The translations under genes and the position numbers were made by a program. A DNA stretch of 64,000 nt from Schmidtea nova (lineage: Eukaryota), in NCBI GenBank assembly GCA_044892505.1, contig CM097882.1:203670001-203734000 (forward strand). Reading direction: 5' to 3'. Under the pieces are notes generated by a model that did not search any database, was not told the DNA's origin, and was given only the letters and a program-made list of their open reading frames with translations. This document shows, in pieces, positions 48,201 through 51,200 of the stretch (within the stretch, counting starts at the first letter, position 1; the number at the start of each line of letters is the position of its first letter).

Positions 48201-51200
48201 CAAAGAAGCGAATACGTGTTACGAGATGAGAATAAAACCTCAGTTGATAGAGGCAAAAGAAAGAATATTGGCAGAGAATTTGAATACGATGATAGAACAG
48301 ATCATCCAACAAATCAAGAAACATCGAAAGGAATTGACGAAAAGCGAGTATGAGAATTTGAAGCAGTGTATCGAGAACATACGAGATACAAGTCAAACGA
48401 GACATTCAAATTTCAAAACGGATAAGTTAATCGCAAAGATGGGAAAAGAAATGTTTAAACGAGGAGAGGTATCAGATCTGAAGATTACCGTGAGCTTACC
48501 GAACGAGGAGACAAGACAAATTGAGGTAATACCAGATAGTAAAGTGGGAGAAATAGTAGAGGTCATCAATGAGACGATATTACAACGAGAACGGGAAGAC
48601 GAATTTGAGGATGACATAGCGATAAAATACAAAGAATATCTACTGAACGAACGTGATGAAAGACGAGCGTATAAAATCGGCATATGGGATAATTATCAGA
48701 CAATACATGTCATCAGAATGGATGATGTGCAAAGAGCAACACCAAGGGATGAGGAAAGGAAAAAGAAACGACAAGAGGACGTTATGCGCAAGTTGAGGCA
48801 GATAGTAGAAATCTATAGGAACTGGCAAATAAAGCCAGAATGGGAGACAATATTGGGAGAATTGGATCTTAACAGACGACGATTGACGCCAGTAGAGAAG
48901 CAATGGGATAACAAAGAGAAATGTTGGAAAGTGAAAAGAGGCGTGTATGAAGAAGATCCGGAAGGAGAAGACAGATATGAACGGAATACGAAACGGATAT
49001 GTATGGTAACAAGGAGGTTACTACCAACGGACTTAGACGGACCAGAAACTGCAGTAATATGGGCAGAATTGGAGAAACAGAAAACGGGTGAATTAATCGA
49101 GCTGTTGAGAGGAAATACTCGGGGAAAAAGACAAACAATAAAAGGCTTAGCACAATTCATAATCGCAAATGGAGAAGACATAACGAACTTGAGAAAAGTA
49201 GCTAAAGCGATAGCAGAATACAAGAGAGTTAATGAGTGGTGTCCGGAGCAACTAGACAATGTAACAAAGAAGTGGAGAAACAAAGAATTTGCGGAAGAAA
49301 CGCCACAAAAAATACATTTGAGGATAATGTATCCGAATCAGAGAAAAGAAGAGTTTTGGGTGATGCTAACAGAAAAAGTGAAAAGTGTTAAAGAGAAACT
49401 GATGTACGAACTACCATTCCACCTGCAACATCAAGGACGATCGTTGGATAATAATTTGGAAATCTGGCTGACACCAGTGCAATTGGATCTAATGAATACG
49501 TTAACAGTGGCACAAATAGTGGGTCAACCACTGAAGTTTAAAGAGGAAAAGAAACCGAAAGGAAGCATGAGTACACCAAGTCCAATGAAGTCAACAATGA
49601 CCCCAGGAACAAGTTCGGGACAAGCAAGGACAACACCAATCAAAACGAGAGAGAGAACACCGCCAGAAGCGTATGACGTAGACGAAATATTAACCGACAG
49701 TGATGAAGCGATAGAAGAATTAACAAAGTTGACTCAAAAACCAACGGCGAATATTTTTGACAGAATAATAGAGATGCCAATAACGTCACCAGCAGAAATC
49801 GACGATCAAGGAGTGGAACAGGAGGTAGTCATAGAAATGGTAAACGATTCAGAAGACGAGCAAGAACAACCCCAGTTTACTCAAGAAATGGAAAGATGGT
49901 TGGAACAGCGAGCGAACGAAGGAAGAGATGTTACAGAAGAAACGGGAAGAGCAGCGAGATTCGTAGAAACCGGAACTGGAATGGAAAAACGACCAAGAGG
50001 AAGACCAAAGATAGATCCAGCAACAGCAGTCCCAAAGACAAGGGAAGAAAGGAGACAAGAGCAATGGGAGATTTGCTTGAAGAAATTAGACAAAATCGCA
50101 GAAATCAGAGGAAAAGAGGAGAATCAAGTCTGCCAAGGAGAGGAATGGCTCACCAAAACGATAATGGATGTGTTAGCGATAATCGACCCGGAATTAAAGA
50201 ATTTATGGCGGATAAACGAACCCAGTACAAAGGCAAAGATGCTACACAATGCAATAGCACCGATTATGCCAGAATTGATAAAAGCGAAAACAAAATCGAA
50301 TCATCTAGATTGGCAAGGAACCACGATGTTAATAAAAAAGCTACTTAATGGAGCAGAAACAGACAGCAAATATCTAGTGGCAATCTCGTATACAATATAC
50401 AATTTGCTAACGCTAAGCCGAGGAAGCCCGAAGTCAAGTCCGATGGGAAGACATATTAAAAATACGGCGATGATTATCGAGAAAGAAATTGAACCATATA
50501 TCCTCAGGAAAGGAGGATGGGAAAAGTTCATAAAAGAGAACCAGACAAAAGAGGGTTCAAACGTGATGAGAAAGAAACTTGAAGGAGTATTGAGAGAAAT
50601 GGAGAATAGACAAACGATGCAAGGAAACGGAAGATCGACGTTGAATTTAAACTCGATAATCATGATGATGTTAGTATGGTTATTAAGCACAGAAGGTGTA
50701 ACAACGTTCGAGGTATTTGATTGTGATCAAATGAAATTGGGAGAAAAGTACTCATTGAGAGGTACGGAGCAATGCAAAGATGCAACTCCAGTAGAATTGA
50801 GAGAGATTAAAAAGGAACAATGGTACCACGTGTATCAAGAAGCAGAACTAATAAAGACAATGGTGAATGAATGCAAAGTGCAGAAGACGAGATTCGCATT
50901 CTATTGTGGGAGAGGACATTATTCAGCAATTGTCATGCCAGGAACGGAAAGAGAACCAATCGTGTTGCAAGGAGAAGACTGCGAAGCATTGTTTAAACAT
51001 GGAGAAGTGACAACAAGAGATAAAATCAAGATAAAAGGAAAACCAGGAATGATGTTGCAGCAGACGTATTATGTAGCAGGACGAATTACGGGAGGAGAAG
51101 GATATTGTCAAGGAGAAACCTACCCAATATTTGGAGTACCTGCAACCAACTTAGTGGTGATGGACACATATATAGTCGAACTGAAAAGTTACGAAGCATT

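Follow-up and report, generated by a model that had tools for sequence, protein, structure and literature searches.

The window, by which we mean the entire 64,000-nucleotide stretch of Schmidtea nova contig CM097882.1 analysed here, contains at about 40-64 kb a purine-rich retroelement of the ~29-kb gag-env-pol gypsy type, whose features are collected in Table 1 (ORF residues are numbered such that residue i starts at 45283+3(i-1)). In unbroken copies, one long ORF encodes, in this order, Gag, an accessory region, a Bcl-2 domain, a hydrophobic segment, Env, a transmembrane segment and Pol. Neither Pfam nor the Atlas firmly identified the accessory region preceding the Bcl-2 domain, and a SUMO-like row (0.81) is a lead only. 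The RGRP motif located just ahead of the domain is putative and presumably AT-hook-like. The 5' half of the 5' LTR was not located in the window. The 5' leader contains two short-repeat arrays, at 43400-44000 and 44286-44964 (units of 19-36 bp, spacing of ~85 bp). Outside the element, the window holds a galactosyltransferase ORF (13404-14375, minus strand) and DUF4371 ORFs (22358-24870, minus strand), all assigned with Pfam, the latter of which we take to be hAT-like. Furthermore, window positions 36711-37888 are a 99.5% identical inverted copy of the stretch that truncates the 3' end of the element ~11 kb past the window, and they overlap a Mab-21/cGAS-like ORF (37051-38337, minus strand).

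Table 1. Features of the element, with window coordinates, strand and the basis of each assignment
Feature	Position	Strand	Basis or remark
3' half of 5' LTR	40088..41737	+	78% identical to the 3' half of a sister copy's 3,249-bp LTR
Primer-binding-site-like motif	41742	+	directly after the 5' LTR part
Small leader ORF ending in C3HC4 RING	42283..42756	+	Pfam zf-C3HC4_3 E 3.3e-9; open in sister copy too
Polyprotein, first open stretch (2,332 aa), Gag to Env ectodomain	45283..52281	+	terminates at stop inside Env
Gag capsid and three CCHC zinc knuckles	45877..46602	+	Retrotrans_gag E 5e-6; zf-CCHC E 2e-8; three CCHC in sister copy
AT-hook-like RGRP motif (putative)	49987..50010	+	sequence; precedes the domain also in families B, C, P0005 and P0009
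Extra helix ahead of Bcl-2 helix 1, BH3-like	50041..50121	+	helix 2-28 of AlphaFold2 model
BH3-like pattern L-x-x-I-A-E in extra helix	50086-50103	+	sequence pattern
Predicted Bcl-2-fold domain, ORF residues 1618-1754	50134..50544	+	AlphaFold2, VIA-align, Foldseek
String NHLDWQGTTMLI	50299-50334	+	lies in the frame of ORF 45283-52281
Degenerate BH1 core (TDSK aligned with NWGR)	50359..50370	+	hhalign probability 97.9, E 6e-13
BH2 motif YILRKGGWEKF	50497..50529	+	profile and alignment columns
Variable linker, predicted helical	50545..50640	+	A-B family identity 44% (domain, 74%)
Env internal signal peptide, predicted cut after 50706 (VTT/F)	50641..50706	+	-3/-1 pattern in 15 relatives
Hydrophobic core SIIMMMLVWLL of signal peptide	50653-50685	+	followed by STEGVTT, and FEVFDC from 50707
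Env ectodomain, Monjiviricetes-type fusion glycoprotein	50707..52278	+	PF24664 E 1.7e-56; stop 52279-52281
Transmembrane segment at the Env C-terminus, same frame as Pol	52399..52455	+	19-residue hydropathy of 2.55 in the sister copy; PF24664 match extends beyond the stop
Protease, RT, RNase H, integrase	53044..55872	+	Pfam; further stop 56161-56163
Two ankyrin-repeat blocks after integrase	56788..58006	+	Pfam Ank_2 E 2e-12 and 2e-11
Start of second tandem unit (11,535 bp)	60496..64000	+	99.96% identity; runs past window end
Second Bcl-2-signal-Env block	61669-62241 onward	+	11,535 bp downstream of the first

The copy present in the window is broken. A stop inside Env (52279-52281) precedes the Env transmembrane segment, and therefore this copy cannot make an Env-Pol chain. 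Further defects are a stop at 56161-56163, a break in the frame at around 57.1-57.3 kb, and an internal tandem duplication of an 11,535-bp unit (48961-60495, and 60496 onward; 99.96% identical), in which the Env stop is common to both units and the post-integrase stop occurs only in the first. Because of these defects, the biology discussed below concerns the family and not the window copy. The natural copies measure 29.3 kb (family A) and 29.7 kb (family B); they have LTRs of 3.1-3.2 kb that are 99.9% identical, are flanked by 4-bp target duplications, and carry a single ORF of 5,089 and 5,685 aa, respectively, with three CCHC knuckles in Gag. Genome-wide, 150 of 1,201 candidate copies were scored; 139 belonged to family A (77-100% identity), 26 of them with stop-free frames of at least 5,076 aa, and 11 to family B (67-68%). 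Five further families were found by a Pfam Bcl-2 search combined with an Env search of the genome, so that at least seven families of this genome have this layout, including some with shorter ORFs of ~3,000 and ~3,400 aa (loci L085, L110, L111, L113 and L121).

By its matching domain order, size and cargo, the element is of the type of the planarian Burro retrotransposons, which are expressed and abundant according to two reports (PMC8532177, PMC11410931); a planarian host would fit the element type and the AT-rich genome. Burro elements exceed 30 kb, have one ORF of 4,873-5,140 aa and contain a BCL2-like motif in Burro-2, -3 and -4, with env in frame between BCL2 and the protease (PMC6431247). 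The elements studied here share with Burro/GYPSM1 the size of ~30 kb, the single ORF near 5,000 aa, the Gag with three CCHC knuckles, the in-frame order of BCL2-like domain, env and protease, and the ankyrin, RING and MATH/TRAF cargo (PMC6431247). Thus, the Bcl-2 domain and its place before env are already published, albeit noted by homology only; the signal peptide, the cut site and the topology are not discussed in that paper (PMC6431247), and we found no printed account of them in the open-access papers searched. TRAF is located differently: it is a separate downstream ORF here, whereas it forms part of ORF1 in S. mediterranea and lies upstream in D. tigrina (PMC6431247). A full TRAF-like gene (RING, zf-TRAF and MATH) is found downstream of the polyprotein inside the element (L037 1261-2688). 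In addition, the part of the ORF that follows the integrase and ankyrin blocks (window 57260-60544; L036-L037; L032) contains repeated modules, possibly luminal, that are surrounded by more segments of signal-like or transmembrane type; these post-ankyrin hydrophobic segments, three in family A, four to five in B and two in C-E, have no Pfam match. Anti-apoptotic cargo has been described before in this element family, since the Burro1 B-IAP is reported to be anti-apoptotic and, by blocking apoptosis, to aid regeneration (Lee et al. 2026, as cited in PMC13465017). It differs from the present case in being an IAP, with BIR and RING domains, rather than a Bcl-2 domain; no BIR match was obtained in the ORFs scanned here, in which a RING ORF is present.

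The presence of a Bcl-2-like domain had been proposed in an earlier note made from the nucleotide sequence, and its fold is borne out on an AlphaFold2 model (pLDDT 82.5). The model was built without templates from a 20-row alignment of element-type homologues only, i.e., the 7 families of this genome and 13 library proteins judged to be element-borne; the library search gave 20 proteins, of which six cellular Bcl-2-like proteins and one saposin match were left out. VIA-align matched the predicted eight-helix structure best at Z 14.3 (rmsd 2.6, 136 residues aligned). Rows 1-35 of its ranking are all Bcl-2-fold proteins, headed by five cellular pro-survival proteins (Z 12.6-14.3), and the first unrelated row has Z 6.1. 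As, by the tool's own warning, chance matches between helical bundles may score up to Z 13, this unbroken run outweighs the top Z score. The Foldseek check that the note had suggested agreed in rank but not in significance: the top rows, and the PDB rows listed, were all of the Bcl-2 family, whereas the E values for the domain model were at least 2.4e-3 and neither of our two models gave a row at E <=0.001. In a profile comparison, hhalign aligned the domain with cellular Bcl-2 proteins at a probability of 97.9 and E 6e-13, and a profile of the 7 families matched Bcl-xL at E 2.4e-7. When used on its own, the window domain gave nothing usable against Pfam Bcl-2, PDB sequences and the Atlas. It did not match PF00452, a model matched by five of the seven families at E <=1 and by some copies above its curated cut-off. 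A profile built from the five families other than A and B found the domain in the duplicated copy at E 7.6e-4 among the 1,044 window segments searched, the next best segment having E 0.27. A word-based search for longer homologues found none among 7,997 scored, which is weak evidence. Taken together, the model and the profiles indicate that the domain almost certainly has a Bcl-2 fold.

Between families A and B, identity in the domain is 74%, which equals that of the protease (74%) and exceeds that of the capsid (70%). Synonymous sites are saturated in the domain, and hence its conservation implies that it is maintained by purifying selection. In a tree of 35 cores, from which P0012 was omitted because it is too short, the 19 element-type domains lie on one side of a branch with support 95/92 and the 16 cellular ones on the other. 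Bearing in mind the long branches, and that the element-type sequences had been recruited with an element profile, this grouping is consistent with one old capture.

All the strings quoted in the earlier note lie in frame in the ORF, but BH2 is separated from the hydrophobic core by 41 residues instead of 37. Its BH2 match was sound, the G-W positions being the best-conserved columns among the 20 aligned relatives. The BH1 assignment had to be corrected. It had been placed on NHLDWQG, a string that we rejected as BH1 and that forms the loop before helix 4; profile-profile alignment puts the NWGR position on T1693-D-S-K1696 instead. The canonical NWGR is absent from the window, where TDSK keeps only the basic residue, and sister families read, e.g., NRDR or NWDR. 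Among the 19 rows having residues in these columns, Trp is kept in none and Gly is lost in 18, while the Arg position is occupied by K or R in 17 and by Val in two families. Loss of the BH1 Gly usually weakens BH3 binding in cellular proteins; many viral Bcl-2 proteins bind BH3 without the motif. The conserved basic residue is a mild hint in favour of a BH3-type partner.

A BH3-like pattern lies directly ahead of the domain. Although the pattern was chosen after seeing the sequences, it was matched at this place in all five full ORFs, each of which contains 1-5 matches over its whole length, and it is the sole match in the 5,089 aa of family A. The upstream helix is BH3-like in families A-E and P0009, and families F and G do not have the small residue. 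The helix could latch the domain's own groove; a second fold that included it had pTM 0.76 and pLDDT 75-82 for the helix, and docking was not evident. The host itself has a Bak-like gene (L045, L146). In that gene, a BH3-like exon lies ~11 kb upstream of, and in phase with, the BH1-BH2 exon.

The earlier note described a single signal-peptide-like segment joining the domain to a viral fusion glycoprotein, and this proved right: in 5/5 full ORFs it is the only such segment upstream of the Env ectodomain. The succession of Bcl-2 domain, linker, hydrophobic segment and Env start motif (xx[AV][YF]DC) is present in 7/7 families of this genome and in eight library proteins, with BH2-to-cut distances of 47-76 residues; P0024 has the same layout too, with A-Q-A before the cut. 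The signal segment is unchanged, or has one conservative change, in all 30 family-A copies compared. Fifteen of the 20 aligned rows reach the Env start motif, and several of these are close relatives, so that there are fewer than 15 independent cases. The residues at -3/-1 in these rows make cleavage by signal peptidase, as the note had supposed, likely. The site that it proposed, EG/V, was rejected because the -1 residue is small in only 6/15 relatives, as compared to 14/15 at VTT/F, three residues downstream, where the -3 residue is A, G, S, T, C or V in 15/15. The alignment thus displays the features of a signal peptidase substrate, i.e., a hydrophobic core, a polar c-region and small -3/-1 residues in 14-15 of the 15 rows. 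It is therefore very likely that the hydrophobic stretch is the signal peptide of Env itself, and the predicted cut at T1808/F1809 (50706/50707) is likely as well. The Pfam glycoprotein model starts on the segment (at model positions 5-8), which suggests that the segment came with Env rather than being the tail of a captured Bcl-2 protein.

Whether the same segment could also serve as an anchor is another matter. In the window it has an apolar run of 13 residues (8-19 in the relatives), and its hydropathy over 19 residues is 1.42, versus 2.55 for the Env transmembrane segment. Because the four cellular tails compared span 11-20 residues, with hydropathies of 0.66-2.32, the length of the segment does not decide the question. 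By these measures, the segment appears compatible with a signal and marginal as a lasting anchor. It becomes C-terminal only after cleavage and its insertion would be co-translational, such that it would at most work like a tail anchor. Co-translational insertion would place the protein in the ER, not in mitochondria. It should be noted that families A and B have exactly two hydrophobic segments between Gag and the protease, whereas in families C-E (three of the five ORFs) the second one, at the C-terminus of Env, falls below the hydropathy threshold and the two-pass topology there rests on homology.

The Env module appears to have a history of its own. The Env protein is 98% identical between families A and B, and the synonymous difference is 0.29, against 0.6-0.8 elsewhere (window 50707 to ~52570, compared with L031-L032), which makes it likely that the env module was exchanged between these families. 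A 5' boundary of the swap exactly at the cut is not supported: the change point is at residue 1743, with an interval (1723-1819) that includes the cut. We also observed that contig depth about doubles over env.

Based on these data, we propose that the junction between the Gag side and Env consists of a Bcl-2 fold, a linker and an Env signal cut at VTT/F, and that both products meet at the ER membrane; we assign this proposal as a whole a probability of roughly 0.6. The segment would thread Env into the ER lumen and then be cut by host signal peptidase, a step for which the evidence is strong. The cut would leave a Gag-side precursor with the peptide at its C-terminus, which would be its only candidate membrane tether; as no other hydrophobic segment precedes the signal in the five ORFs, the signal would hold the Gag side at the ER for a short time at least. 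The other product would be an Env-Pol chain with Pol on the cytosolic tail of Env. The two membrane crossings would keep both Gag and Pol cytosolic, and the two chains would meet on the ER membrane for assembly, by analogy with the flavivirus capsid that assembles on its anchor. The protease of the element might later free a Bcl-2-bearing fragment. I-N-M-hydrophobic motifs recur at plausible protease junctions, and the most downstream one that families A and B have in common lies at residue 778; with a loose version of the motif, matches ahead of the domain extend to residue 1286, although this version has 27 shared places, many of which are inside folded domains. Any freed fragment would, on this weak evidence, probably be several hundred residues long. 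Facing the cytosol at the ER, the Bcl-2 domain may then bind BH3 helices and protect the host cell; we lean slightly towards such pro-survival BH3 binding, and consider it rather doubtful that the anchor lasts beyond assembly. In its most far-reaching form, the Env signal would be a lasting ER anchor of the Gag-side precursor, a captured Bcl-2 with its own BH3-like latch its membrane-proximal, matrix-like module, and Pol would be packaged via the Env tail instead of as Gag-Pol, so that assembly and host survival would be wired through one anchor. We regard this dual use as unlikely.

These features can also be explained in other ways. According to the earlier note, a single signal-peptidase cut yields a classical tail-anchored viral Bcl-2 protein that blocks BAX/BAK in step with Env production. 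The predicted fold, the hydrophobic segment lying beyond BH2 in the C-terminal direction, an arrangement known from cellular Bcl-2, and the equal synthesis that a single ORF enforces all fit this explanation, as does the second-hand report, in PMC13465017, that another Burro gene is anti-apoptotic. However, that cut would leave upstream the entire Gag side, a product of ~1,650 residues counted from the first Met (ORF residue 151), and a second cut would hence be needed to obtain a free viral Bcl-2. The domain is separated from the first Met by ~1,470 residues, and no candidate protease site conserved in families A and B was found just upstream of it. Together with a linker that is longer and more variable than needed, the insertion expected in the ER rather than in mitochondria and the degenerate BH1, this renders the explanation improbable. 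A simpler possibility is that the segment is a plain signal peptide that either signal peptide peptidase or the protease of the element later removes, leaving a soluble or peripheral Bcl-2 product, the adjacency merely reflecting where cytosolic cargo could insert. The short, moderately hydrophobic core and its alignment with the start of the glycoprotein model agree with this, and both HCV core and flavivirus capsid lose their anchors (PMC7601889). On the other hand, the linker is devoid of a conserved protease-site-like motif, and the domain lies directly before the signal in 15/15 rows even though the rest of the Gag side varies from ~900 to 1,850 residues. We consider this explanation possible, at somewhat less than even odds.

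The Bcl-2 fold may also have been repurposed, as a matrix-like assembly module or as an immune-signalling scaffold like poxviral A52/B14/N1, possibly self-latched, instead of blocking apoptosis. Loss of the BH1 Trp and Gly, the fixed membrane-proximal position, the BH3-like helix directly upstream in all five ORFs and the TRAF and ankyrin cargo would be in line with such a role, and the non-apoptotic poxviral folds match the model too (Z 5.6-8.6). Their scores are below those of the cellular pro-survival proteins that head the ranking, though, and the nearly invariant basic BH1 residue, the missing small residue in two families and the refolded model, which gave no evidence of docking, argue against it; this role seems unlikely, albeit not strongly so. 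Finally, translation of Env might mainly begin at a Met close to the signal, on a spliced or subgenomic RNA, in which case the segment would be an ordinary N-terminal signal and the link with Bcl-2 minor. In family A, an in-frame Met lies 30 residues ahead of the cut, with similar ones in B, D and G, and env is a separate ORF in other gypsy elements (PMC6431247). Yet family C lacks a Met between BH2 and the cut, and no family has a break in the frame across the junction, making this explanation very improbable. No joint into the signal region was present among the 15 of 21 joints listed in four contig sets, a result that has no bearing on splicing.

The proposed topology can be compared with several known systems. 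In the flavivirus anchor-C/prM and HCV core/E1 junctions, as in our proposal, the internal signal of the glycoprotein stays on the capsid-side protein after cleavage by signal peptidase; the upstream protein is small there and the anchor is removed by a viral protease or signal peptide peptidase (PMC7601889), whereas in the present case its counterpart would be the Gag precursor of a retroelement, with a Bcl-2 fold at its end, and the polymerase lies behind the tail of the glycoprotein. Errantiviruses with a gag-env-pol order and an HSV/gB-type Env occur in flatworms, nematodes and bryozoans, and in them, too, the ectodomain is flanked, on its upstream side, by a signal peptide or transmembrane segment; the main text of that report does not contain the term "bcl" (PMC13524379). 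Viral Bcl-2 proteins are stand-alone genes of DNA viruses. The domain described here shares with A179L, KsBcl-2, BHRF1, CNP058 and M11L the fold (Z 9-12) and the degenerate BH motifs, while being a polyprotein domain whose only hydrophobic tail is the predicted signal of Env.

In summary, the observation is real, confirmed in part as described in the earlier note, and mostly known. The proposed topology adds a twist to what is otherwise a refinement of a known element. What we have added is a structural prediction, a corrected BH1 register, a conserved predicted cut site and a topology in which Gag and Pol would be on separate membrane-bound chains. If true, this would explain how assembly of gag-env-pol retroelements can do without a Gag-Pol fusion, and the retroelement-borne Bcl-2 would acquire a defined place of action.
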